NCBI GenBank assembly: GCA_964608265.1
Contig: CAZSNP010000011.1
Coordinates: 15,488-79,487 of the forward strand
From: an uncultured Anaerolineales bacterium
GTDB taxonomy: Bacteria > Chloroflexota > Anaerolineae > Anaerolineales > UBA6663
Length of the DNA: 64,000 nt
Direction of reading: 5' to 3'
Shown here: in pieces, positions 49,921-62,349 of the stretch
Numbering within the stretch: the first letter of the stretch is position 1
Layout: each line of letters begins with the position of its first letter
The notes under the pieces: model-generated
The model's database searches: none
Seen by the model: the letters and a program-made list of their open reading frames with translations, nothing else
Told to the model about the DNA's origin: nothing
Translations under genes and position numbers: made by a program

Positions 49921-50133
49921 TTACAGCTTCACGACGTTCACGGCCTGCAGGCCCTTGGGGCCCTGCTGCACCGTGAACTCCACCTTCTCGCCTTCTTCCA
50001 GGTTACGGTAGCCTGCACCCTGAATGGCGGAGTAATGTACGAAGACATCCTCCCCACCGCCATCCGGGGCAATGAACCCGTAGCCCTTCTGGGGCTTGAA
50101 CCATTTCACCGTTCCGACGACACGCTCAGACAT
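49921..50133 (-). CDS. Cold-shock protein (CspA family)
   Basis: [21 protein letters not shown] (RNP1) and VFVHYS (RNP2). AGGAGG lies 5 nt upstream of ATG 50133. Confidence 0.92.
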
Positions 50134-50406
50134 CTTGCCTCCTTGTGGCAAAAAAAGAAATGTGTGAGGGCTGGCTGGTTCCTGGGGGAAGGGTCAACAA
50201 AAATAGCTCACAGCGTGGGGAGTGGGCCGTGAGCTACAATCTTGCTGTCCTGATTCCTACGTGAACTGCTCGCATCCTTCGGGCGGGATTATACGAGGCC
50301 CCCCGGATTTGGTCAAGGAAAATCCCGCCCGTTGCCAACCGCGACCGTCAGACGGTTGACGTCCCCGGTCACCGGCGCTGATATCCCAGCCAGCAGGGAG
50401 AATGTC

Positions 50407-50625
50407 ATGATCGAGGTTGAGATCAAGACCCCGGTGCCACCCACCGAAGAGCAACTCGACAGGGCCATTCGTCTGGCCGAGGCCGAAGGCGCCATGCTCG
50501 GTGGCGGGCTGGACGAGTTCGTTTTGGCTATTCCCGCCTCAAGGCCCCATGCCGTTGAGCACGTGCGCTTTCTGGTCGCCCAGGCGCTGGGCGTGCTGTC
50601 TGTCATGGAAGCGGCCCGTGGCTGA
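50407..50625 (+). CDS. Hypothetical small protein (72 aa)
   Basis: ATG 50407 is preceded by GGGAGA, and a strong terminator follows. No family recognised. Confidence 0.35.
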   Translation: MIEVEIKTPVPPTEEQLDRAIRLAEAEGAMLGGGLDEFVLAIPASRPHAVEHVRFLVAQALGVLSVMEAARG

Positions 50626-50654
50626 AGGCACGCTCGACGAACCGGAGAAAAGCA

Positions 50655-50682
50655 AAAGCGGCTCTGCCAAGAGCCGCTTTTT
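50655..50682 (+). terminator. Rho-independent terminator
   Basis: aaagcggctct / gcca / agagccgcttt forms a perfect 11-bp stem running into TTTTT. Confidence 0.65.
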
Positions 50683-50956
50683 GTCCCGTGAGCCCGAGGC
50701 CCACTTGCTGCGCCAGACCGGCTCACATGAAATCGGGAATGTAAAGGGGGCACTCTTCTCCAGCCCCGTGCATGCAAATCGTGACCATCCGACCGGGCTT
50801 CATCGCAAACTTGTCAGGCAGATTGCCGCGGCCCTGAGATTGGCCATCATTGCCATGCTAATCGCTGCCACGTTTTTTGTGTCATAGTGGATTGCGCCAA
50901 AAACACATGGGCCGTCCCTTGAAACGTTGCTGCCCCACTCGGCGTGCCAGCACGGC

Positions 50957-52165
50957 TCAATTCATCTGCGTGTGCGACTGCAGGCCCGGCATCACCATCA
51001 AAAAATCACGGGCGAAGCGCTCGGCGTAGCTTTCGGTCAGCTCGCGGATGCGCTCGGCTTTGGGTGAGGCCACGATCAGCCCGGCGTGGTTCTTTTTGTC
51101 CAGCCGGAAGACGATCTCCGGGTCGGTATAGCCGGTGAGGTCGGGGCGCTCCTGTTGCGCCAGGCAGGTGACGATGCCGGCGTAGTGCTTCTTCACCTTT
51201 GGCAAGGTATACGGCTCACCGGCGATGTGCGCGGCCTCGATGTTGGCCCACTCACGCCACAGGTTGACGCCGCTGGCGTGCTCCACCGCATCGGCGATGT
51301 TGGCCCCGCCCACCCGCGACGCGCACTCGATGAAGTACACCCGCTCATCGGCCTGCGCCCTGAGGAACTCGGCGTGCGTGGCCCCGCGCTCCATCCCCAG
51401 CGCCCTGAGCATCAGCTTGTTGGCGGCCAGCATCTCCTTCGCCAGCGCCGAGCGGTCGCCGAGCGTGCGGGTGACGAAGACGCCGCCATCCTGGTACACC
51501 GTGAGCGGCGGGCGCGCGTACTGGCTGACGGCGGCGAATATGACCTTGCCGTTGTCAACCAGTGAATCCACGTGAAAGACATCGCCGGCCACAAACTGCT
51601 CGAAGACGTAGAACGACTGCTGATCGCCCAGCTCGTCGAGCGCGCGCCAGAGTTGGTCGGGATCGGCAATCCGGCGGATGCCCATGCTGCTGGCCTCGCC
51701 GCGCGGCTTGAGCAGCCACGGCGGCGGCACGCGGCCCATGAACTCGCGGAGCGCGTCGTAGTTGAACACACCGGTGAACTCCGGGACGAGCACGCCACCG
51801 TCGCGCGCCACCGTCCGCATCGCCAGCTTGTCGCGGAAGTGACGGGCGAGCGTGCTGCCCGCGCCCGGCAGCCGCAGATGCTCGCGCAGGTCACCGGCGG
51901 TCTCCACGTCGAAGTCATCCAACGCCACGACCGAGTCGATCTTCCGCGCGCGCGCCAGGTAACTCACCGCGAACAAAATATCGGGCCGCTTGTCGAGCGC
52001 GGGCATGAAGAAAATCTCGTCAATGCTCTCGCGCGGCCACGGCTCGTTTTGATACTTCTCCTGCGACATCAGAATCACCCGATGCCCGGCGTGCTTGAGC
52101 GCGTGCAGGAAGTTGTCGCCTTTGTAATGGCTGGCGAGACACAGGAAGGTCAGCGGCTTATCCAT
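50957..52165 (-). CDS. ATP-grasp domain ligase (ATP-grasp_4-like), ligase B
   Basis: 402 aa. WLLKPRGEASSMGIRRI, FVFEQFVAGDVFHVDSL and THAEFLRAQADERVYFIECASRVGGANI show the ATP-grasp phosphate- and Mg-binding pattern. Confidence 0.72.
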   Translation of the reverse strand: MDKPLTFLCLASHYKGDNFLHALKHAGHRVILMSQEKYQNEPWPRESIDEIFFMPALDKRPDILFAVSYLARARKIDSVVALDDFDVETAGDLREHLRLPGAGSTLARHFRDKLAMRTVARDGGVLVPEFTGVFNYDALREFMGRVPPPWLLKPRGEASSMGIRRIADPDQLWRALDELGDQQSFYVFEQFVAGDVFHVDSLVDNGKVIFAAVSQYARPPLTVYQDGGVFVTRTLGDRSALAKEMLAANKLMLRALGMERGATHAEFLRAQADERVYFIECASRVGGANIADAVEHASGVNLWREWANIEAAHIAGEPYTLPKVKKHYAGIVTCLAQQERPDLTGYTDPEIVFRLDKKNHAGLIVASPKAERIRELTESYAERFARDFLMVMPGLQSHTQMN

Positions 52166-52173
52166 TCGATTTT

Positions 52174-52242
52174 GACAAGGTGATCGGGTGACAGGGTGGT
52201 ATTGCCGCTCACCCGGTCACCCGGTCATCCTGTCACCTTGTC
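52174..52242. repeat. Word-repeat hairpin (GACAAGGTGA / GGGTGACAGG vs CCTGTCACCTTGTC)
   Basis: Forward words at 52174-52195. Tandem GGTCACCC/GGTCATCC words, then the inverse at 52229-52242. It fills the gap between the GCS2 and ATP-grasp genes. Confidence 0.8.
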
Positions 52243-52247
52243 ATTCG

Positions 52248-53360
52248 TTACGACACCCCTTCTTCAGTCTCGCGGATCAACTGATCCACCACCGCCTTGA
52301 GGCTGCCGGTGCGTTTGAAGGTGGCCAATTGCCGGTCGGCGCTGGTGCCCTCCTCGAGGATGCGGTAGGCATATTCGATTTCGCGCCGGCTGCCCAGCTC
52401 GTCGGCCACGTCGCCGATGAACCACTCGATCATCTCGCGGATCAGTTCGCGCGCCGGCTTCTCCTCCTGCTTGCCCCAGTCGATGAGCTTGCCATCCAGC
52501 CCATACCGCACCGCCCGCCACTTGTTCTCGTCGATGAGGGTGCTCGGGTACAGGCGGAAGGTCATGTTGTCGCGCCGCAACTTCCAGGCTTTGTAGATCA
52601 GGGCCTGGAAGATGGCGGCGATGGCCACGCACTCATCCACCCGGGTGCAGACATCGCACACGCGGAACTCAAGGGTGGGATAGCTTTGATTGGGCCGCGC
52701 ATCCCACCAGATCTTGCTGCCATCGGGGATGCACTTGGTATTGACGAGCGTTTGCTTGAGCTGATCGAACTCGCTGCGCGAGTGCATGATCGGCGGGATG
52801 CCGGTGCGGGGGAAGTTGCGGAAGATGATGCTGCGATAGCTCTTGAGGCCGGTGTTCTCGCCGACCCAGAACGGCGAACTCGTGGACAGGCAGAGCACGT
52901 GCGGCAGCAGGTAGCGCACGACGTTCATCGCGTCGATCACAAACTCCGGGTCCTCGATGCCGATATGCACGTGGGTGCCGAAGATGAGGAGTTGCTGCGC
53001 CAGCATCTGCATATCGGCCTTGACGCCGGCGTAGCGTTCGAAGGGGGTGATGGGCTGATCCTGCCAATTGGAGAACGGGTGCGTGCCGGCGGCGACGATC
53101 TTCAGCCCTTTGCGGGCCGCCAGCTCCATCACGCCCTTGCGCAGCCGAATCAGCTCCGCCCTGGCCTCCGCCGGCGTCGTGCACACCCTGGTGCCGACCT
53201 CGACGATGGATTGATGCAGCTCGGCCTTGATCTGCTCGGCCATTCGCAGTTTGCCCTCTTCGAGCATCTCGGTGATGTAAGACCTCAGTTCACGTGTTTC
53301 GGGGTCAACAATTTGATATTCTTCTTCAATGCCGATGCTGAGCGAGGGGCGGGTGAGCAT
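52248..53360 (-). CDS. Carboxylate-amine ligase, glutamate-cysteine ligase family 2 (YbdK-like)
   Basis: [26 protein letters not shown], and about 370 aa in length are typical of GCS2. Confidence 0.85.
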
Positions 53361-53504
53361 ACTGGCCTCCGGGTGTTGATTGCTTTATGAGTCCGTGAAA
53401 CGCGATGCCTGAAACGCGGGTTGTTGTACGGACAGGGTTTCGCCGCCGGGCAATGCGCCGGCCAGGCCGACGCGTCTCACGGGGCACAGTCCCCGCTTCA
53501 CGCC

Positions 53505-54857
53505 TCACAGCCTTTTGTCCACCACGAACGTCGGCACCGTGCTGCCGCCGCCGGCAGTGACGTTGAGCAGCGACGCCGTCGACAGCCGGGTGAGGCAACC
53601 ATCCATGTATTGGCCGTACCAGACGAAGGGGTTGGTGTCGAGCATACGATCGTAAACCTCGACGCGACCGTCCACCAGGCTGGCGTACGGGAACTTGGGC
53701 AACGGCACGCGCCGCTGCACGATGGACGGGTCGTTCAGCCCGGCGCGCAGCGCGGCCTCCCACTTGCTCTGATCGGCCTCCCAGCCCAGCACGATGCCCT
53801 TGCCGCCGTACTCGTCGTTGGGCTTGAGGACGAACTCGTCCTTGTGTCTGGCCAGGAACGGCATCAAATCCACCGGCAAGCCGTTGTACGTCGTCTTGCG
53901 TTCCGCCAGCAACCGCGTCCACGGCACATAGCGCTCGATGGCGGCGCGCTCCCGGGCCGTGAACAACGACGCGTTGGCCTCGTCGCTCAGCACGGCCAGG
54001 CTGGCCTTCTTGTGCAAAATCTTGCACACAAACGGGTTGACCATGCAGACGGCGCCCTCACGCACCGCGCGGATGACGGGGTGCTCCAAGCCGCCACGGA
54101 TCACGAGTTCGCTGATCAGCACGCGCTTGTAGATGATGTGCACCGGGTAGCCGTCGGCGTACAGCTTGCCGTTCTCGTAGGCCACATCGCGCGGGTCGCA
54201 GATGGTGCAGTCGTAGCCGTGCGTGCGGAAGTATTCTCGGAAGAGGACGAATTCGCTGTACGTCGGCACTTCCTTCCAGTCGAGGATGGCGATGCGCGGG
54301 CGTTCGGTGCCGCCCCATTGTTTGTAGCAATCGAGCAGCGCGTGCAGCATGTGGTGGCGGCCGGGCAGCGGACGCACTTCGTACGTCTTCTCGAACTCGC
54401 GGATGACAGGCAGGGCGAAAAAGACCTCGGAGAGCACGTCGTTGTAGGCCACCGCCGCCGGGGTCTCGGCGTTGTACTCGGTGCACCACAGCGCATCGGC
54501 CTCGTCGAAGAACGTATCCATGCGCGCGGTCGGGCTGGGGGCGCGGAAGCCGGGGTCGGCGTGCACCAGCTCCTCCTCCCACTCGTTCAATCGAAATTGA
54601 TAGCGGAAGTCGGCGCTGGCCAGCGCGGCCTCGTGCATTTTCTGGAGCGCCGGCATGAGGATGCGAATAGCGGTCTGCAGGGCGTGATACTGCTGGGTGC
54701 TGAGGAAACGCGGGCGCAAGACCGTGCACAGCGGGCGGTCGCCGAAGAACAACCCGCGCTTTTGCTGCTGCTCGGTCAATTGCGCGTATGTATCCTGCGC
54801 CGTCTGCGGGTCGAGCAGGGAGTGGTAATGGTCAATGGTGGCGAGGATTTCTTGCAT
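53505..54857 (-). CDS. Glutathionylspermidine-synthase-like / circularly permuted ATP-grasp superfamily amidoligase
   Basis: ARMDTFFDEADALWCTEYNAETPAA (the R-x-D...E-x-N-A-(D/E)-T-P pattern of the GspS synthetase family), FVLKPNDEYGGKGIVLG, and LNVTAGGGSTVP. Confidence 0.55.
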   Translation of the reverse strand: MQEILATIDHYHSLLDPQTAQDTYAQLTEQQQKRGLFFGDRPLCTVLRPRFLSTQQYHALQTAIRILMPALQKMHEAALASADFRYQFRLNEWEEELVHADPGFRAPSPTARMDTFFDEADALWCTEYNAETPAAVAYNDVLSEVFFALPVIREFEKTYEVRPLPGRHHMLHALLDCYKQWGGTERPRIAILDWKEVPTYSEFVLFREYFRTHGYDCTICDPRDVAYENGKLYADGYPVHIIYKRVLISELVIRGGLEHPVIRAVREGAVCMVNPFVCKILHKKASLAVLSDEANASLFTARERAAIERYVPWTRLLAERKTTYNGLPVDLMPFLARHKDEFVLKPNDEYGGKGIVLGWEADQSKWEAALRAGLNDPSIVQRRVPLPKFPYASLVDGRVEVYDRMLDTNPFVWYGQYMDGCLTRLSTASLLNVTAGGGSTVPTFVVDKRL

Positions 54858-54867
54858 GTTCCGATTA

Positions 54868-54938
54868 CAGTAGCCAGTATCCGGTAGCCAGCAACGTGAT
54901 AAACAATCTGGCGACTGTGATCGGGCGACTGGCTACTG
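54868..54938. repeat. Word-repeat hairpin (CAGTAGCCAG ... CTGGCTACTG)
   Basis: Perfect 10-bp inverted pair at 54868-54877 and 54929-54938, with related words GGTAGCCAG, CTGGCGACTG and GGGCGACTGG in between. It fills an intercistronic gap. Confidence 0.85.
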
Positions 54939-54943
54939 TGATT

Positions 54944-55870
54944 TCAGGCGTTGAACAGCGTTGACCAGCGCAACTCCTTCACCTGCGGCTCCGGGGCCTT
55001 GGCCAGCCGGATGCACATATCGGCCATCTTTTCCACACACCAGCGGTGATACTCGCGCCCGGTGGAGTTGATGTCCATATCCGGCGCGGGGTTCATGAAG
55101 TCGATGGCGTAGGGGATGCCGTCGCGGATGGCCCACTCGATGGTGTTCATCTCGTAGCCCAGCGCGCGCACGATCAGGCGCGATTCCTCGATAATCTGAT
55201 CGAGGAGCTTCGGCGGCATCTCGGGCGGCAGATACTTGCGCGTATCGGGGTCGTACTTGCGCACGTTGATGTGCTGGCGATCAATGCACATACAACGCAC
55301 GTACATCCCTGGGTCCCACTTGATGAACTCCTGCAACACCATCGTTAGCAGGCCCGATTGGTTGTAGGCATTCCACAAATCATCCATGCTGCGGCAGACA
55401 TGCACCTGTTTCCAGCCGCCGCCGTGCGCGTCTTTGAGAATCACCGGAAAGCCGCCGACGCTGTTGACCAGGCCTTGCCAGTCGATGGGGTATTCGAGGT
55501 TGCGCAGGCTTTCGGTGTGGACGATGCCGGGCACATAGTCTTTGTTGGGCAGGGCCACCGTGCGCGGGCTGTGGATGCCGAGCTTGGTGATGAGCGAGGC
55601 CCCGAAAAACTTGTCATCCGCCGTCCACATGAAGGGGTTGTTGACGACGTGCGTGCCCTGCAGCAGCGCGTTCTTGAGGTATGAGCGGTAGTAGGGGACT
55701 TCGTGCGAGATGCGGTCAATCAGCACGGCGTAGTCGCACGGCGCGTTCATCGGCGTGCCGCCCAACTTGGCGTACTCGGCCATGACGCCGGCGTTGCGCC
55801 CATTCACTTCCTCGATGAAGGCCGGGGGCCACGACCACTCGCGCCCGACGATGACGCCGATCTTGAGCAT
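54944..55870 (-). CDS. ATP-grasp domain ligase (RimK-like size), ligase A
   Basis: Start at MLKIGVIVGREW with CAGGAGA upstream. FPVILKDAHGGGWKQVHV, MVLQEFIKWD and NTIEWAIRDGIPYAIDFMNPAPD. Confidence 0.7.
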   Translation of the reverse strand: MLKIGVIVGREWSWPPAFIEEVNGRNAGVMAEYAKLGGTPMNAPCDYAVLIDRISHEVPYYRSYLKNALLQGTHVVNNPFMWTADDKFFGASLITKLGIHSPRTVALPNKDYVPGIVHTESLRNLEYPIDWQGLVNSVGGFPVILKDAHGGGWKQVHVCRSMDDLWNAYNQSGLLTMVLQEFIKWDPGMYVRCMCIDRQHINVRKYDPDTRKYLPPEMPPKLLDQIIEESRLIVRALGYEMNTIEWAIRDGIPYAIDFMNPAPDMDINSTGREYHRWCVEKMADMCIRLAKAPEPQVKELRWSTLFNA

Positions 55871-55930
55871 GTGCAGTCTCCTGTCTAAGCTGAGGCGTGA
55901 ATACAAACACAGCACTCCTACGAGCGCCGC

Positions 55931-56152
55931 TCATAGGAGTGCAACGAATTCGTCCACGTTCAAACCGGTCTGGCGAATGATGGCGCGCAGCGTCCCACGG
56001 TCGAGCTCTTTGTGATCGGGTATGGTCACTTGACAAAACGGCTCCGCTCGCCGGAAGATCATGTGATTGCCCTCTTAACGCTTGAAGACAAGGCCGGCCT
56101 TGAGCAAGGCTGAGGCACACTCACGGCCCGACACGCGCGGCAGTTTGCTCAT
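55931..56152 (-). pseudogene. hicA: HicA toxin gene with an in-frame TAA at codon 26
   Basis: MSKLPRVSGRECASALLKAGLVFKR*EGNHMIFRRAEPFCQVTIPDHKELDRGTLRAIIRQTGLNVDEFVALL. The stop at 56077..56075 sits where HicA proteins usually have Gln (CAA). ATG 56152 overlaps the hicB stop (ATGA). Confidence 0.75.
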
Positions 56153-56355
56153 ACCGCGACGAGCAAAGCTTCAAACCGTTCTTCCGGAATGGGCAGACCA
56201 TCGTCTTTGAGCGCCGCCACATAACCGGCGATGGCCTCGCGGATATTGGCGATGGCTTGCTCCTTAGAGTCACCCTGACTGACGCAGCCGGGCAGGCTGG
56301 GACACTCGGCCACCCAGTATCCATCCTCACCGGGGTATAGGAGTATTTGACGCAC
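56149..56355 (-). CDS. hicB: HicB-family antitoxin (UPF0150)
   Basis: MRQILLYPGEDGYWVAECPSLPGCVSQGDSKEQAIANIREAI is the canonical HicB N-terminal fold. Confidence 0.85.
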   Translation of the reverse strand: MRQILLYPGEDGYWVAECPSLPGCVSQGDSKEQAIANIREAIAGYVAALKDDGLPIPEERFEALLVAV

Positions 56356-56411
56356 GACGTATTCTCCTTTTTAGTCCATCAGTTGCTCACGCCCATTATG
56401 CCATTAATCCC

Positions 56412-57143
56412 TCAGAACTTGGCCCCAAGATAATACGGCAGCATCTTGCGCCAGGTCGGCCAGTCGTGCGGCATGTCGAACCCCCACAAATCCAGCTCGT
56501 GCGGGATGCCCTTGCCGCCCAGCACATTCGCCAGATCGCGGGACGATTGCGGGTTCTCGTAGCTGCCCTGCCCGCTCAGAATATAGATGTGCTTTTTCGC
56601 CCGGAGTTGATTCAGCGTCTCCCCCTCCGGCATGTTCGGGATGAAGGCCAACGGGTCGTTAAAGTACACGTTCTCATCGTAATAGCCGTCGGTGAAGTTG
56701 CGGATGCTGAAGTTGCCGCTCATGGCGATCATGCCGTCGAACAAATCCGGGCGGCGGAAGAGCTGGTTGGCGGCGTGATAGCCCCCCAGGCTGGCCCCGG
56801 TGTTGATGATGCCGACCTTGCCCTTGCAACTGCCCCAGATGTACGGCACGACTTCCCTGGTCACGTACTCGTTGTACAGATGCTGCATCCACACCCGGTG
56901 GCCTGGATGCGCGTCGCGGTTCATCCACGCCTGCCGGTTGATGCTGTTGATCGAGAAGACCTTGACCTTGCCCGCGTCGATGTGATGGGCGATGGCGTCG
57001 ATCAAATGAAAGCGCTCGTACTCGAGGTAATCCGCGGCGGCGGTGGGGAACATCAGCAACGGGAAGCCGTAGTGCCCGTAGGTCACGATCTCCATATGCT
57101 GATTCAAACTCGGGCTGTGCCAGCCATCAATGAAGCGATCCAT
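56412..57143 (-). CDS. Esterase family alpha/beta hydrolase (PF00756-like), paralog 1
   Basis: Start at MDRFIDGWHSPSLNQHMEIVTYG with GAGGAGA upstream. Nucleophile elbow GASLGGY. Confidence 0.7.
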   Translation of the reverse strand: MDRFIDGWHSPSLNQHMEIVTYGHYGFPLLMFPTAAADYLEYERFHLIDAIAHHIDAGKVKVFSINSINRQAWMNRDAHPGHRVWMQHLYNEYVTREVVPYIWGSCKGKVGIINTGASLGGYHAANQLFRRPDLFDGMIAMSGNFSIRNFTDGYYDENVYFNDPLAFIPNMPEGETLNQLRAKKHIYILSGQGSYENPQSSRDLANVLGGKGIPHELDLWGFDMPHDWPTWRKMLPYYLGAKF

Positions 57144-57167
57144 CCCGTGTCTCCTCGAGATGTAGGG

Positions 57168-57241
57168 CGTGAAACGTAAATCGTGAAACGTGATCAGCGA
57201 AGCGACTCTCACGTTTCACGCATCACGCATCACGCATCACG
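57168..57241. repeat. Word-repeat hairpin (CGTGAAACGT x2 / TCACGTTTCACG) plus a CACGCAT heptamer tandem x3.5
   Basis: cgtgaaacgt at 57168-57177. cgtgaaacgtga at 57182-57193 pairs perfectly with tcacgtttcacg at 57209-57220. cacgcat repeats at 57217-57237, then cacg. Confidence 0.88.
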
Positions 57242-57961
57242 TCAATCATGCCCGCCCACATACATCCGAATCATCCTGTGCCAGTACGGCCAGTCGTGGC
57301 TCCAGCCATCCCACTCGCGCAGGGCGTTGCCGATGCCCTTGCTCCACAACTGGCCGCTGAACCAGCGGTTGTGCTCGATGTTCGGGTCGTCGCGGCCCAG
57401 CGCCATGATGATGTCGAGCCGTTGCAACAGGCGGAGGCGCCCCGGGTCGTGCTCGCGCGGCAGGTAGAGCGCCGGGTTGTGATAATACACCGTGTCGTTC
57501 ACGTAGCCATCCGTCCACTTGCCGATGTCGTACAGCCCACTCAGGGCGATGATGCGATTGGTGATGTCGGGATGCCGCAGGCCGAAGTTCATGGCGTGGT
57601 ACGCGCCGAAGCTCGCGCCGGCCACGATCAAGTACGGCGTCCAGTTCTTGTGCGAGATGAACGGCATCACCTCGTACACGAGGTAGTCGTCGTACTGCTG
57701 ATTGCGCCACGCCCGCCCGCCGGGATGCGCCCAGCGCGCATACCAGCTCTCGGCATCCACGCTATCCACACAGAACATCTGCAACCAGCCGCGGTCGAGG
57801 TGCTCCCACAGCGCGCCGGTCATGTTGCGGTCTTCCCACTCGTAGAACTTGCCCATCGAGGTGGGGAAGGCGAGCATGCGCGCGCCGCCGTGCCCGAATA
57901 CGAGCAACTCCATATTGCGGTTGAGCGAGGGGCTGTACCAGCGGTGGTATTCACGGTGCAT
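57242..57961 (-). CDS. Esterase family alpha/beta hydrolase (PF00756-like), paralog 2
   Basis: Start at MHREYHRWYSPSLNRNMELLVFG, which aligns with paralog 1. Nucleophile elbow GASFGAY. Confidence 0.7.
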   Translation of the reverse strand: MHREYHRWYSPSLNRNMELLVFGHGGARMLAFPTSMGKFYEWEDRNMTGALWEHLDRGWLQMFCVDSVDAESWYARWAHPGGRAWRNQQYDDYLVYEVMPFISHKNWTPYLIVAGASFGAYHAMNFGLRHPDITNRIIALSGLYDIGKWTDGYVNDTVYYHNPALYLPREHDPGRLRLLQRLDIIMALGRDDPNIEHNRWFSGQLWSKGIGNALREWDGWSHDWPYWHRMIRMYVGGHD

Positions 57962-58112
57962 AATTATTCCGAAAGTAAAAGGCAGGCGGAAAGGAACGGG
58001 CACACGCCCCATGGCAATTTGCTCACGTACGTGGCAACAATGGCTGAAACAGCCACCCAGACTGTTGGTGTCCAGCCGGTTTTGGAGTCGAGGCTACATT
58101 CATCACCGCAGG

Positions 58113-59219
58113 TTAGGGTGGTGGATAACCTTGTGGACACCCTGGGAGACAGGTTGGTGTTCGCGTTGGCGTCCGCGTTGGGGTAGGAGTTGAAAAAGGA
58201 GTATTGGTTCGAGTGGGTGTCCTCGTAGCCGTGGATGTTGGCGTAGGAGTGGGCGCCTCGTGTTTCAAGATAATCGGCAAAAAATCCCAGCCACACGAAT
58301 AATGATGATTCTGTGGCGTATCAATATACTGAGGTGGGGGATTAGAAATCAGCGACCGATTAGGCAGCGTAAGTGCCATTGGGCCCCAAAACGCAATTGC
58401 TTGCCCACCACTTTGATATGTAGGAGGATTTGCCGCACATCCCCAAATTAACTCCTGATAAGGCCAGTTCGCACGAGTTTGACCGCCTTGACCACATTGC
58501 CATGAACTACGCGGCCACGGGAATCGTGGGTTATTGGGGTTATTGATGTACCCAAATCCATTGTAAGCCCAGACAGCGTAGTACCAGTTTTCCACAATCA
58601 TCGGATCGTTTTGGCCGATATTGTGATCAAAGTCGAATATGATGCCATTCCATTTTCGTTGAAGGATGAGGGTGCCGGTTCCAATGTTGTAAACAGGTTC
58701 TGCCGCAACGCGACTCGGGCTGAATAGGCCTCCGAGTCCATCATTCATGCCTGAAGTGATTTGCATGATTCCATAGCCGCAGTCAGCGCTTATGTATGTG
58801 TTACCGATGCTACCGTAAGTAGATACATTGAATTGGAACCAACCTGTAACTTCGGTATAGCCAATGGCTTTCAGGAGTATGCAGGGCGCATAGGCGCGAT
58901 GATTGGCGTTGCCATTGCGATTTATCGGATAGCCTGACCACAACCGAGCTTGACCTGGGCCGCTGCTACCCAAGTTGTTAAGACCAGCCTGGTCGAATGA
59001 TGGAGCCAACTCAGATGGAAAGGGTTGCCGGCCACTCGCTGCAGGCTGAGGGCAAGTTTGAGCATTACATGTGGTTGGGACAGCCGTAGCAACAAGGGCC
59101 AGCGCGATTACGAGCGCGACACAACCAAAGAGCAGATAGCGAAGTACGGATCTAAGCGTGTTCGGCACTAACGGGTTGGCGTTTAGCATAGGATTTACCC
59201 TCCCACAAGCCAAATGCAA
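58113..59219 (-). CDS. Secreted lysozyme-like / lytic transglycosylase-like protein with a C-terminal Pro/Thr tail (start uncertain)
   Basis: N-terminal anchor LLFGCVALVIALALVATAV. GYGIMQITSG and AVWAYNGFGY resemble the SLT G-L-M-Q and A-Y-N-x-G motifs. Tail TPTPTSTATRTPTRTNTPFSTPTPTRTPTRTPT. Lower GC. Confidence 0.45.
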   Translation of the reverse strand: MHLACGRVNPMLNANPLVPNTLRSVLRYLLFGCVALVIALALVATAVPTTCNAQTCPQPAASGRQPFPSELAPSFDQAGLNNLGSSGPGQARLWSGYPINRNGNANHRAYAPCILLKAIGYTEVTGWFQFNVSTYGSIGNTYISADCGYGIMQITSGMNDGLGGLFSPSRVAAEPVYNIGTGTLILQRKWNGIIFDFDHNIGQNDPMIVENWYYAVWAYNGFGYINNPNNPRFPWPRSSWQCGQGGQTRANWPYQELIWGCAANPPTYQSGGQAIAFWGPMALTLPNRSLISNPPPQYIDTPQNHHYSCGWDFLPIILKHEAPTPTPTSTATRTPTRTNTPFSTPTPTRTPTRTPTCLPGCPQGYPPP

Positions 59220-59231
59220 AAGCCTGAGCAG

Positions 59232-60539
59232 CTATTGTAGCCAGCCGATGAACTCTATTTGATACGGTGATGACACAATATTGCTGCTTGACCCGTCACG
59301 TTTGAGCACCACAAGATCGCTCCCACTATTGGTAAACACTCCAGTTGTGATCCATTCCCCATCCTGTGACCAACCTTGCGGTACGAAAATGCCTTCTGTG
59401 GAGCCTGTCAATGTCGTTTCCTGTCCGCTATCCAAATTGTACAACCGCAACTCAGATGTACCACCTACTGCTGCCGGCGGAATGTTGAGGACTATTTCGC
59501 GCCCATCATTGCTCCAAACCGGATTGTATAGCTCGTCACTGGCTCCTTCGACTACCGTAGTGACCTGTCGTTGGGCATCGGTTGGGACAATCACGACAGC
59601 GTACTCGCGCGGCTGCCCCGATGATGTAATCGTGCAAAGAAGGTTTGCGGCATTTGGAGATAGAAAATAACAACGCGGGGTTGTTTCGGATGATACGTAC
59701 CGGATGAACTCAGTTGTACCTACCAGAGTGGAGCGCCGCAGTTCATACTGTGCTCCGCTTCCAAGAAGATAATAGAAGTGCTCTCCGTCTGAAGACCAGT
59801 CCAGAGGCCAGAGCCAGGACGTGTCGTTTGCGGTCACGATAGTCTGCTCTTCGCGAGTGTTGACATCTATGATGGCAATGCTTTGAGTGTACGGTGGTTC
59901 GAGTGATGTTTGCCTGCTAAAGGCTATACGCTGATCATCTGGCGACCATAATGGGTAGTTGATGTAACGCCCGATATCCACCTGACTTGCAAGCAAGACC
60001 GGCCCAGATCCATTCATGTCTGCCACCCAAAGCCTTCCTGCCAGCGGGTTAGTGCCAAAACCGGTCGGCACCATTACATACGCGATTTTGCTCTTATCAT
60101 GAGAGACATTTGCATGTACACCAAATTGACTTTCATCCTGAACAGCCTGAATAGGAAGACGAATATCAGGATTAGCAGCATTAGCGGCCCAAATAGTCAC
60201 ACTTGCCCCTGTGGTTTCTTTGTAGAGCAAGGCCGCGCCTTCCGGCAAAGCTGAGGCAGTCGGAATCGCGGTTGGTTGTAAAGTCGGAGCCGTTGTAGAA
60301 ACGATGGGTGGGGTAGCCGATTGTACTGGAGGGGGGTAAGCTGATGGAACTATAGTCGACGTTGGCAGCGTAGGAGGTGGATAAGCAGGAGGCGTTTCTG
60401 ATTGAGAGAGATCATAAGTGGGAGATGCAACTGAGGCTGATTGCTGGCCGCCAGTAAACAGCCACGTCAAGAGCACGATTAATGCCAGAAATACAGCTAA
60501 TCCGATTACGCCGCTGACAATTCCGCGAAGTCGCATCAT
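59232..60539 (-). CDS. Membrane-anchored TolB-like beta-propeller protein
   Basis: N-terminal TM VIGLAVFLALIVLLTWLF and a P/T/S-rich linker. Repeated PD40-like blades: LWSPDDQRIAFSR, DWSSDGEHFYYL, VWSNDGREIVL and GWSQDGEWITT. AGGAGG SD upstream. Lower GC. Confidence 0.6.
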   Translation of the reverse strand: MMRLRGIVSGVIGLAVFLALIVLLTWLFTGGQQSASVASPTYDLSQSETPPAYPPPTLPTSTIVPSAYPPPVQSATPPIVSTTAPTLQPTAIPTASALPEGAALLYKETTGASVTIWAANAANPDIRLPIQAVQDESQFGVHANVSHDKSKIAYVMVPTGFGTNPLAGRLWVADMNGSGPVLLASQVDIGRYINYPLWSPDDQRIAFSRQTSLEPPYTQSIAIIDVNTREEQTIVTANDTSWLWPLDWSSDGEHFYYLLGSGAQYELRRSTLVGTTEFIRYVSSETTPRCYFLSPNAANLLCTITSSGQPREYAVVIVPTDAQRQVTTVVEGASDELYNPVWSNDGREIVLNIPPAAVGGTSELRLYNLDSGQETTLTGSTEGIFVPQGWSQDGEWITTGVFTNSGSDLVVLKRDGSSSNIVSSPYQIEFIGWLQ

Positions 60540-60702
60540 CGGAGCCTCCTATGTGCTTCTGCACCCTTTAGCTGCTCAGGGGGCTACGTTCACAGTTAGA
60601 GAATAGAGCCATCTCGTTGTGTAGTCAATAGTCAGCCTTACCAAGCCCGCACTTCATTACGGGTTCGACATGTCATACGAATTGCGTGCCAAGCCAATTC
60701 CG

Positions 60703-62349
60703 TTACACATCAATCAAGGAGTAAAAGTCTTTCAACCCATCCTCCACCCGCTCCGGGTTTTCCGGGTCGGCGGCCCAGCGCGTGCGGTCAATCAAGAACT
60801 TGTACGCGTGCGTGCCGGGGCAGAAGGCGGGCACGGTCAGCCGCCACGCGCCCGGCGCGAACTCGTGCAACTCGTAGCCGTACGGCAACCAGTGATTGAA
60901 GCTGCCCACCACCGCCACCTGTCGCGCGTCTTTATCATAATAGTAAAAGGTGATGGTGCGCTGAGGCGAAATCGGCGTGGGGTCCTGCTCAGCGGCCAGG
61001 CGCAGGGCAGCGGCCACCGCCTTCGCGCCGTTCACCGCGCCATGGCCCTGCTTCTCGGCGGGCACGTTCGGCAGCGCCTCGGCGGTGGCGGTGAGCAGCG
61101 CCTTCACCTGCGTCGGGGTCAGCGCCGGGTTGGCTTCGAGCATCTGGGCGACGATGGCCGACACAATCGGCGCGGCCATGCTCGTACCATCCACGTGTTG
61201 ATAGTGCGGATGGATGAACTTCTGCTCGACGATGCGCTCGCGGATGATGGCGCGAATCTCGGGCAGCGACAGGCCCAGCGTCTTTCTCGAAAAGCGCTTC
61301 TGCGCCTGCGGGGTGCGCAACTCCCTTTCGAGTTTCCGGTCGCTTAACGCCTCGAGTTTCCAGAGATATTGCGCCTCGTTGTGCGTGCTCGTCCTCGGCA
61401 GCATCGGTGCGGGCAGCCACAGCGCCGGGGCGACGACCTCCGGCTTGCGGACTCCGTGCGCGCCCGCGCCGTAACTGCTCCAATACAACTTGTGCCGCGC
61501 CCGGTCGAGCGAGTTGGCGTCATCCACCCCGCCCACGGTGATGGCGGACGGAGCGGAGGCCGGCGGCATCAGCCCGCGCTCGCCGCTATTGCCCGCCGCG
61601 CACACCACCACCAGCCCCGCTGCCACCGCCTGTTCCACTTTCTCGTCGAGGTCGGTGAGCCGGCCGGTATTCACGTAGTCGCCGCCGAGCGAGAGGTTGA
61701 CCACGCGGATGTTGAAGCGTTCGCGATTCGCCACTACCCAGCGCAGCGCGCGCCCGATATCACGCTCGGAGATGTGGCGCGGGTTGCGGCGATTGCCCGT
61801 CTTCACCAGCACCGCGGTCGCGCGGTACGCGATGCCGCGATAGCGCCCGGCGCTCATAAAGCCGTTGCCCACACCGATGCCCGTCGTCATCAGCCCGTGC
61901 CAACTCATCACCGTCACCTTGCCGGTCGCGGCGCGCTCCTCCGGCTCGTTCATCGTCGCATCGCAATACGCCACGATGCGGTTGGTCGGTTTGGTCAGGT
62001 CGGGGTGCGGATAGAAGCCTGAATCGAGAAACGCAATCGTTTGGCCCTGGCCGGTGTATTTGGGATTGATGGGGACGCGGGCCGGGGTCGGGAGCAAGTG
62101 CGCGTTGTCGCGCGCGTAGGCGGGGAAGGGGAGGTGCAATTCGGCTTGCAGTGAAGTGGCGCTCTCCGCGTCGCGCGCGCGCCGGGCCGCGCGGAACACG
62201 CACTCCGGGCACGCGCCCTCCGCCGGCGACCACTCGGGATGATGGGCTTGCAACTCGTGCGCGATGTGCGGCTCCGGTTCACGCAGCAGGTTGCGGATGG
62301 CGGGGTCTATAGGGTTGTGGCAGATGGGGCACGTTGTGGGAACGGGCAC
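60703..62349 (-). CDS. S8 (subtilisin-like) serine peptidase with an N-terminal Cys4 zinc ribbon and a C-terminal CBM48/AMPK-GBD-like domain
   Basis: CPICHNPIDP...CPECV. Triad contexts IAFLDSGF, SWHGLMTTG and DGTSMAAPIVS. C-terminal ITFYYYDKDARQVAVVGSFNHW...GTHAYKFLIDRTRWAADPENP. No signal peptide. Confidence 0.82.
   Translation of the reverse strand: MPVPTTCPICHNPIDPAIRNLLREPEPHIAHELQAHHPEWSPAEGACPECVFRAARRARDAESATSLQAELHLPFPAYARDNAHLLPTPARVPINPKYTGQGQTIAFLDSGFYPHPDLTKPTNRIVAYCDATMNEPEERAATGKVTVMSWHGLMTTGIGVGNGFMSAGRYRGIAYRATAVLVKTGNRRNPRHISERDIGRALRWVVANRERFNIRVVNLSLGGDYVNTGRLTDLDEKVEQAVAAGLVVVCAAGNSGERGLMPPASAPSAITVGGVDDANSLDRARHKLYWSSYGAGAHGVRKPEVVAPALWLPAPMLPRTSTHNEAQYLWKLEALSDRKLERELRTPQAQKRFSRKTLGLSLPEIRAIIRERIVEQKFIHPHYQHVDGTSMAAPIVSAIVAQMLEANPALTPTQVKALLTATAEALPNVPAEKQGHGAVNGAKAVAAALRLAAEQDPTPISPQRTITFYYYDKDARQVAVVGSFNHWLPYGYELHEFAPGAWRLTVPAFCPGTHAYKFLIDRTRWAADPENPERVEDGLKDFYSLIDV

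Follow-up and report, generated by a model that had tools for sequence, protein, structure and literature searches.

What might a bacterium make, or mark, with four different ATP-dependent carboxylate-amine ligases encoded in a row beside two esterases? In this study, we addressed this question for a 64,000-nucleotide stretch from an uncultured Anaerolineales bacterium of the Chloroflexota (assembly GCA_964608265.1, contig CAZSNP010000011.1, positions 15,488 to 79,487 of the forward strand), hereafter the window. A preliminary description, made from the sequence alone, had proposed that these genes form a ribosome-independent peptide or amide pathway. The seven genes that it listed all lie on the minus strand where it placed them, with the lengths and motifs that it quoted, and profile searches confirmed their families: two PF00756 esterases (EstA and EstB), an inserted hicAB toxin-antitoxin cassette, a first ATP-grasp ligase (ATP-grasp A), a circularly permuted ATP-grasp enzyme (CP-ATP-grasp), a YbdK-type ligase of the GCS2 family and a second ATP-grasp ligase (ATP-grasp B). 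Our findings support a conserved core of esterase, ATP-grasp A, CP-ATP-grasp and GCS2, made of two separable halves, with hydrolases and peptidases as an integral part of the system whose type varies with lineage. By analogy with characterised enzymes, we suggest that this operon-like unit may direct the stepwise synthesis of a small gamma-glutamyl oligopeptide or peptide-amine, with dedicated hydrolases for its turnover, a reading for which we see the chances as evenly balanced.

Is the cluster a functional unit at all? CP-ATP-grasp homologues were aligned and one genome per GTDB species was scanned; at least 585 stretches, each a species-level genome, encode a relative of this enzyme, and the best 80 were kept as loci. 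Synteny was examined by tblastn with the window proteins on these 80 loci, adjacencies being counted over the loci with enough flanking DNA. By deposited label, about 60 loci belong to Chloroflexota (spanning Anaerolineae, Thermoflexales, Ardenticatenaceae/Promineifilaceae, Ktedonobacteria and Thermomicrobiales), 11 to Gemmatimonadota, Longimicrobia included, and 2 to Armatimonadota; one is labelled Proteobacteria, one "Bacillati ANGP1", and the others are unclassified. Throughout, the order esterase, ATP-grasp A, CP-ATP-grasp, GCS2 recurs, each adjacency being present in 78-89% of loci and on the same strand almost everywhere. An esterase lies upstream of ATP-grasp A in 42/54 loci, ATP-grasp A just upstream of CP-ATP-grasp in 56/63, and GCS2 just downstream of CP-ATP-grasp in 56/68, with a median gap of 35 nt (144 nt in the window). 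Median intergenic gaps are 35-78 nt, stop and start codons overlap in several genomes, and the divergence of the partners from the window proteins is correlated (rho 0.43-0.60). Such recurrence, in dozens of genomes and in several phyla, puts the arrangement far beyond chance. The contrary explanation, that these are unrelated neighbours merely sharing a strand in this contig, can point to the toxin-antitoxin cassette and hairpin that interrupt the cluster in the window, and to ATP-grasp B and the S8 peptidase, which are not universally linked to the core; yet order and orientation are kept in at least three phyla with short or overlapping gaps, and we consider it scarcely credible. Chance adjacency is effectively refuted by the synteny analysis.

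Neighbourhood conservation, which the preliminary description had named as a check, is thus strong across phyla and reaches beyond Chloroflexota. As to the unit of four ligases and two esterases, the ligase-esterase core holds but ATP-grasp B does not belong to it, lying downstream of GCS2 in only 16/54 loci, almost all from Anaerolineales. The two halves of the core are seen apart in several genomes: CP-ATP-grasp and GCS2 stand by themselves as a tightly coupled pair in L030, L032 and L052, and esterase, ATP-grasp A and CP-ATP-grasp occur without an adjacent GCS2 in L031, L057, L071 and L082. In one uncultured "Chloroflexia" metagenome-assembled genome (MAG), two CP-ATP-grasp–GCS2 pairs, 98.7% identical, stand in tandem (L065, 4652-7100 and 8298-10746); they reflect a very recent duplication or else an artefact of assembly.

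What chemistry does the core suggest? The cluster enzymes retain intact, conserved catalytic motifs, and the signature enzyme is CP-ATP-grasp, which carries TEYNAETPAA and LKPNDEYGGKG, exceeds the PF14403 gathering cut-off (36.0 bits, cut-off 32) and has more than 6600 database relatives. Its AlphaFold2 (AF2) model (mean predicted local distance difference test score, pLDDT, 89.8) was matched by Foldseek first to human, yeast, potato and soybean (homo)glutathione synthetases, over the full length (2e-17 to 1e-14, TM ~0.65), and next to 3n6x (Mfla_0391), the fungal E-64 ligase Cp1B, Escherichia coli GspS, YjfC/YgiC and trypanothione synthetase. In a sequence-profile search of the PDB, only 3n6x (2e-7) and Cp1B (0.009) were detectable; in a profile alignment, EYNAETPA of CP-ATP-grasp falls on EYNADTPT of YjfC. 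YgiC and YjfC act as peptide-spermidine ligases (Pederick et al. 2023, cited in PMC12568646). All the characterised structural relatives of CP-ATP-grasp join a small-molecule carboxylate to an amino acid or a polyamine. The neighbouring GCS2, of glutamine-synthetase fold, scores 197 bits with PF04107, has the generic NCBIfam model NF010039 ("carboxylate-amine ligase"; 526 bits, cut-off 371) as the best one above its cut-off, and aligns with E. coli YbdK (1r8g) at 1.4e-42.

One comparison is with glutathione synthesis. In the cluster, too, a GCS2-family ligase adjoins an enzyme whose predicted fold is closest to eukaryotic (homo)glutathione synthetase (GS), and the pair also occurs alone and translationally coupled. 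CP-ATP-grasp is, however, only 11-14% identical to GS, a likeness at fold level only, the cluster holds extra ligases and hydrolases, and nothing points to cysteine as a substrate. GCS2 falls under the cut-offs of the gshA equivalogs (NF010043, 352 vs 409 bits; NF010042, 263 vs 427; TIGR02048, 78 vs 249), and no gshB match from NCBIfam was obtained for ATP-grasp A or for CP-ATP-grasp, the latter having no NCBIfam match at all. With GspS, trypanothione synthetase, YgiC and YjfC, CP-ATP-grasp shares the ATP-grasp subclass and the EYNA(D/E)TP motif, and some of its relatives have a precomputed PF03738 (GSP_synth) match, whereas the window protein has none at E<=0.01. GspS couples its ligase to a hydrolase activity, a parallel to the linked esterases of the cluster; on the other hand, CP-ATP-grasp has no CHAP amidase domain, its 450 residues covering the synthetase fold only, and its gene context is different. 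The analogy with glutathione and glutathionylspermidine raised in the preliminary description nevertheless gains support from the GS/GspS-like fold of CP-ATP-grasp, the adjacent and often coupled GCS2, and a C26 hydrolase found in Gemmatimonadota.

On these parallels, a pathway of five steps can be proposed. The YbdK-type GCS2 would activate the gamma-carboxyl of glutamate, or of another acidic substrate, and couple it to an amino acid or amine. CP-ATP-grasp would then phosphorylate the C-terminal carboxylate of the GCS2 product and add an amino acid or polyamine, as glutamate-cysteine ligase (GCL) plus GS do in glutathione synthesis, or as in the glutathione (GSH) plus spermidine step of GspS. 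ATP-grasp A, of RimK/LysX-like fold, would extend the terminal carboxylate by at least one residue; in Anaerolineales, ATP-grasp B might supply or add a dipeptide unit; and the PF00756 hydrolases, with their S8, C26, S9 or S33 partners, would trim the product, break it down or recycle it. It is by analogy that we infer the substrates, the step order, a gamma-glutamyl bond and a part for the hydrolases in recycling. The isolated, coupled CP-ATP-grasp–GCS2 pair fits two consecutive steps. A small peptide fits because a PuuD-like gamma-glutamyl hydrolase accompanies GCS2 in Gemmatimonadota, because the other peptidase partners are oligopeptidase types (S9/Dpp5 and S33), because the characterised CP-ATP-grasp relatives all use small molecules, because ATP-grasp B has L-amino acid ligases that form dipeptides as homologues, and because there is no conserved precursor or carrier open reading frame (ORF). 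A more specific version would make GCS2 and CP-ATP-grasp the bacterial counterpart of GCL and GS, with ATP-grasp A extending their product to a new low-molecular-weight gamma-glutamyl thiol or peptide-polyamine; such a compound would be a major metabolite of Chloroflexota, Gemmatimonadota and Armatimonadota, its level controlled by the esterases and peptidases. This version we regard as doubtful.

Several points weigh against a small-peptide product. Every chemical step is assigned by analogy. Lehmann and colleagues are said to have reported in 2004 that the glutamate-cysteine ligase activity of YbdK-type enzymes is weak and possibly non-physiological, so the gamma-glutamyl assignment is not secure; and as GCS2 is missing from some loci, among them the four named above, the system may not require it. 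Genes for export or uptake show no consistent linkage among the loci. The nearest folds of ATP-grasp A, those of ArgX, LysX and RimK, act on protein C-termini, and tagging of a protein fits them equally. Moreover, the window proteins and their counterparts show 60-78% identity between Chloroflexota and Gemmatimonadota, unusually high for a small-molecule pathway, which could reflect macromolecular partners or recent horizontal transfer. As a separate observation, some Gemmatimonadaceae (L085, 12500-13987; L051/L077, 11435-12925) carry, after the C26 gene and on the same strand, a gene for a symporter of the DASS type (Na+/sulfate or di/tricarboxylate), which may be a substrate-uptake component in these few loci.

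The 308 residues of ATP-grasp A compare with 306-308 in its homologues, and its invariant features include the G-rich loop KDAHGGGW and, at acidic/Asn positions, E245, D257 and N260. The AF2 model (pLDDT 87) finds its best PDB matches in ArgX, LysX, RimK and Ddl (3e-13, TM 0.64-0.68), MdnB, MdnC and PsnB being weaker structural matches than RimK or LysX. Sequence models, in turn, give a weak RimK Pfam domain match (23 bits) and 38 bits with TIGR00768 (cut-off 143). Among the 120 closest relatives, 119 have no precomputed Pfam domain, and those that are named are called "hypothetical protein". The family appears to be without a dedicated profile, though profile-PDB and fold searches clearly identify the protein as an ATP-grasp. 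With RimK, LysX and ArgX it shares the overall fold and the weak RimK-domain match, but its TIGR00768 and LysX scores are far under cut-off, and its family is a separate, effectively unannotated group.

The main rival explanation is that the ligases add amino acids to the C-terminus or side chains of a protein or peptide encoded elsewhere, as RimK does on ribosomal protein S6, LysX and ArgX on LysW, or PafA when it attaches Pup, and that removal of the tag, or degradation of the protein bearing it, falls to the esterases and the S8/S9 peptidases. The best folds of ATP-grasp A, all modifiers of protein C-termini, agree with it, as do the recurrent endopeptidase-type neighbours (S8 and S9) and the very high conservation across phyla, which is expected of macromolecule-recognising enzymes. 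PafA belongs to the same superfamily as GCS2, and GCS2 and the Pup ligase have a common fold. Nonetheless, no conserved small ORF that could encode a carrier was found in or near the cluster across the 80 loci, and the same check revealed no linked S6-like or LysW-like substrate gene; the characterised structural relatives of CP-ATP-grasp are all small-molecule enzymes, ATP-grasp B falls in a family acting on free amino acids, and the C26 and S33 partners, being of exopeptidase or amidase type, suit small substrates. With the RimK and LysX equivalog models also far under their cut-offs, we judge the tagging explanation unlikely.

The small-peptide reading also accommodates ATP-grasp B, the accessory ligase. 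It is of the L-amino-acid-ligase type (PDB 4wd3, 3.6e-17; 3vot; BacD), aligning over ~240 residues with such enzymes at 1e-17 to 1e-7 and having the same domain organisation. Homology to RizA, BL00235, BacD/YwfE and TabS is clear at family level; unlike these, ATP-grasp B is here an accessory gene outside any antibiotic cluster, and it scores under every equivalog cut-off (32 bits vs 850 for the BacD model, 20 vs 840 for DdaF). Outside the usual arrangement, it takes other positions or orientations in L035, L036 and L078. An Anaerolineales MAG carries tandem paralogues after GCS2 (L004, 6533-7732 and 7741-8916), 66% and 59% identical to the window protein.

The hydrolase partners differ by lineage. 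An S8 peptidase (subtilase), which in the window falls outside the coordinates of the preliminary description, lies directly upstream of the esterase in 16/46 loci, all Anaerolineae or Thermoflexales, always on the same strand and within 100 nt. It joins an N-terminal Cys-rich CPIC...CPEC segment to a C-terminal beta-sandwich of the CBM48/AMPK glycogen-binding type; a signal peptide is seemingly absent, the N-terminus being judged by eye, and we read the protein as a cytoplasmic protease, for which this architecture is unusual. Gemmatimonadota have a second, more typical PF00756 esterase upstream and, in 10 loci, a Peptidase_C26 gene directly after GCS2, whose best NCBIfam match is PuuD, gamma-glutamyl-GABA hydrolase (138 bits, under the equivalog cut-off). 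In Ktedonobacteria and Promineifilaceae, the C26 position is taken in 7 loci by an S9 prolyl-oligopeptidase/Dpp5-like enzyme with a PD40 propeller, and one further group of loci has an S33/TAP-like aminopeptidase-type hydrolase.

Ligases co-encoded with hydrolases also recall cphA/cphB, and the cluster might on that account make a poly-amino-acid reserve or protective polymer, cyanophycin- or poly-glutamate-like, which the ATP-grasp enzymes would polymerise or branch and the esterases and peptidases depolymerise. RimK-type enzymes can indeed make poly-alpha-glutamate (PDB title 5zct; PMC10375531), and the S8 partner bears a CBM48 domain of a granule- or glycogen-binding type. However, profile searches of the cluster proteins revealed no CphA-like Mur-ligase domain, S51 cyanophycinase or PgsBCA homologue, the use of three or four different ligases speaks for a heteropeptide of defined sequence over a repetitive polymer, and the closest CP-ATP-grasp relatives add a single residue; a polymer is in our view improbable. 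The C26 partner of Gemmatimonadota invites another comparison, with the PuuA/PuuD route or the actinobacterial gamma-glutamylpolyamine synthetases: an amine or polyamine would be gamma-glutamylated, further conjugated and then broken down, as catabolism or detoxification. As in PuuA/PuuD, a ligase of glutamine-synthetase fold is paired, in the Gemmatimonadota versions, with a C26 gamma-glutamyl-amide hydrolase, one with PuuD as its best match, and CP-ATP-grasp is related to polyamine-conjugating ligases. GCS2 is not PuuA, though, and no oxidase or aldehyde-dehydrogenase gene of Puu type is linked; the C26 partner is confined to one phylum and absent from the window, and three ATP-consuming ligations would be wasteful for catabolism, making this the more improbable of the two. 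Both are less likely than synthesis of a small peptide because their defining partner genes are absent.

Does the cluster then correspond to any described system? Profile and structure searches, a check proposed in the preliminary description, place none of its enzymes in a characterised pathway, the equivalog models for gshA, gshB, rimK, LysX, BacD and cyanophycin genes all scoring under their cut-offs or giving no match. CphA, an ATP-grasp plus Mur-ligase protein, and the S51 cyanophycinase domain were not found among the cluster proteins, and a graspetide/microviridin-type ribosomally synthesised and post-translationally modified peptide (RiPP) would require a precursor peptide gene, for which the 80 loci offer no conserved small ORF. 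Neither the window cluster nor the related loci examined contain the alpha-E, transglutaminase-like or Anbu domains of another CP-ATP-grasp system, whose solved member 3n6x is only a distant relative of the window enzyme (2e-7). PADLOC returned no defence-model match for the ligases or esterases, and only generic subtilase matches for the S8 peptidase. As first described, the cluster had no nonribosomal peptide synthetase (NRPS) and no transporter; this is borne out, neither being present within it.

A computationally predicted neighbourhood comes much closer. Iyer, Abhiman, Burroughs and Aravind reportedly predicted one of this kind in Mol Biosyst in 2009, assigning it to small-peptide biosynthesis. 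Its CP-ATP-grasp (PF14403), with Roseiflexus RoseRS_2616 as the prototype, is reported to be accompanied by a GCS2-like ligase, a peptidase of alpha/beta-hydrolase fold, a GAT-like amidohydrolase and an M20 peptidase. The cluster agrees with this in its CP-ATP-grasp above the PF14403 threshold, its adjacent GCS2 and its alpha/beta-hydrolases (two PF00756 proteins in the window), and 10 Gemmatimonadota loci add the C26 amidohydrolase of glutamine amidotransferase (GATase) fold, of which the window has none. It differs in the M20 peptidase, of which none was seen in the window or in the other loci examined, and in the extra components ATP-grasp A, ATP-grasp B and the S8/S9/S33 partners. We therefore file the cluster as a further member of a computationally predicted, biochemically orphan system; a literature search found no paper on its experimental characterisation. 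The earlier statement that no described pathway matches thus stands for characterised pathways, and is qualified by this reported prediction; overall, the initial interpretation is partly supported. Our analysis adds the adjacency frequencies, the division into core and accessory genes, the lineage-specific swapping of hydrolases, the similarity to the eukaryotic GS fold and the local insertions.

Close relatives of the signature ligase occur in at least 585 genomes, counted at species level, and most of these come from little-studied phyla that abound in soil, hot-spring and wastewater-sludge habitats. Should the product be a new redox thiol, compatible solute or peptide-polyamine, a gap in what is known of basic physiology in Chloroflexota and Gemmatimonadota would be closed, and three large orphan enzyme families, the YbdK-type GCS2 subfamily NF010039, CP_ATPgrasp_2 and the ATP-grasp A family, would gain a function; should tagging be true instead, a new bacterial post-translational modification would come to light. 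The enzymes could also serve as ATP-dependent catalysts of peptide-bond formation.

How the cluster is laid out in the window is given in table 1. The window is the reverse complement of a metagenome contig of the Joint Genome Institute (JGI), and the JGI gene calls for this DNA agree with the ORFs found here.

Table 1. Genes and predicted RNA or DNA elements of the ligase-hydrolase cluster, in window coordinates
Feature	Position	Strand	Remarks
S8 peptidase	60703..62349	minus	Pfam Peptidase_S8 137 bits, CBM_48 28.5 bits; lineage-specific cluster partner
EstA, PF00756 alpha/beta-hydrolase, 239 aa from conserved start	57242..57961	minus	Core member
EstB, second PF00756 alpha/beta-hydrolase	56412..57212	minus	Probable start 57143
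hicB antitoxin gene	56149..56355	minus	PF15919 37 bits; outside conserved system
hicA toxin gene with in-frame TAA	55931..56152	minus	Stop at 56075-56077
14-bp GC-rich hairpin	55912..55942	minus	Consensus scan; overlaps hicA stop codon
ATP-grasp A, 308 aa	54944..55870	minus	RimK-domain match 23 bits; core member
CP-ATP-grasp (CP_ATPgrasp_2), 450 aa	53505..54857	minus	PF14403; signature enzyme
GCS2 / YbdK-type carboxylate-amine ligase, 370 aa	52248..53360	minus	PF04107, NF010039; core member
ATP-grasp B, 402 aa	50957..52165	minus	ATP-grasp_4 and ATPgrasp_N; accessory member
12-bp hairpin, A-run and T-run flanks	50654..50681	minus	Consensus scan; ~280 nt downstream of ATP-grasp B

The two esterases had been described as a paralogous pair. 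Both are indeed PF00756 proteins (31 bits for EstA, 29 bits for EstB), but they are not a recent pair: at 34% identity, and judging from their sequences, EstA and EstB are two old subfamilies. EstA carries GASFGAY, and EstB GASLGGY within a subfamily marked by GASLGxYH and a C-terminus in ...KF; both retain the GxSxG serine and the HDWP histidine, and in EstA these two residues (the serine in GASFG) are invariant in 33 homologues. Structural matches of the esterases, to feruloyl esterases and esterase-D-like proteins, are weak, the best PDB matches of EstA being at 1e-8 to 1e-5. The EstA ORF extends to 58012, and the alignment of homologues supports the start at 57961 (MHREYHRW). Among the other loci, L019, L023, L026 and L031 have the EstB type only, and L006 has both types.

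Two segments of the window, hicAB and a low-GC island of two genes, are local insertions. The hicAB cassette lies between EstB and ATP-grasp A, and its earlier reading as an insertion is upheld, hicB being missing at this position in 78/79 other loci (L002-L081). In the exception, L014, an Anaerolineae MAG, a HicB-like ORF (1352-1522), which shares 35% identity with HicB of the window, immediately precedes ATP-grasp A; the esterase/ATP-grasp A junction may be a recurrent site of toxin-antitoxin insertion. Only one gene of the pair in the window is intact, hicB, which overlaps the start of hicA. The interrupted hicA reads ...VFKR*EGNHMIFRR... where HicA proteins have RQxGSH, the stop replacing Gln, and its C-terminal 43 residues match positions 24-58 of the HicA_toxin profile; given this single in-frame TAA, the toxin gene is probably dead and likely a pseudogene. 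The hairpin at its end sits 42 nt upstream of the ATP-grasp A start and has a weak T-tract; it may terminate transcription or stabilise RNA, and may have arrived with the cassette.

The low-GC island, at ~58013-60700 (2.7 kb; ~51% GC vs 60-67% around it), separates the S8 peptidase from EstA; in relatives, the S8 and esterase genes are contiguous. Its two minus-strand genes (58113-59219 and 59232-60539) encode a membrane-anchored protein of 368 aa, which has a Thr/Pro-rich tail and matches no family, and a beta-propeller protein of 435 aa that is PD40/TolB-like. No convincing repeats were seen on either flank of the island.

At the other end of the cluster, the hairpin downstream of ATP-grasp B probably marks the end of the transcription unit, and it could terminate in both directions, lying as it does between an A-run and a T-run. 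Beyond it, a cold-shock gene (49921-50151) has its own near-consensus sigma-70-type promoter (TTGACC-17-TATAAT, 50316-50288, minus strand). Two small plus-strand ORFs without family match (50407-50625 and 50618-50887) converge on the ligase operon.

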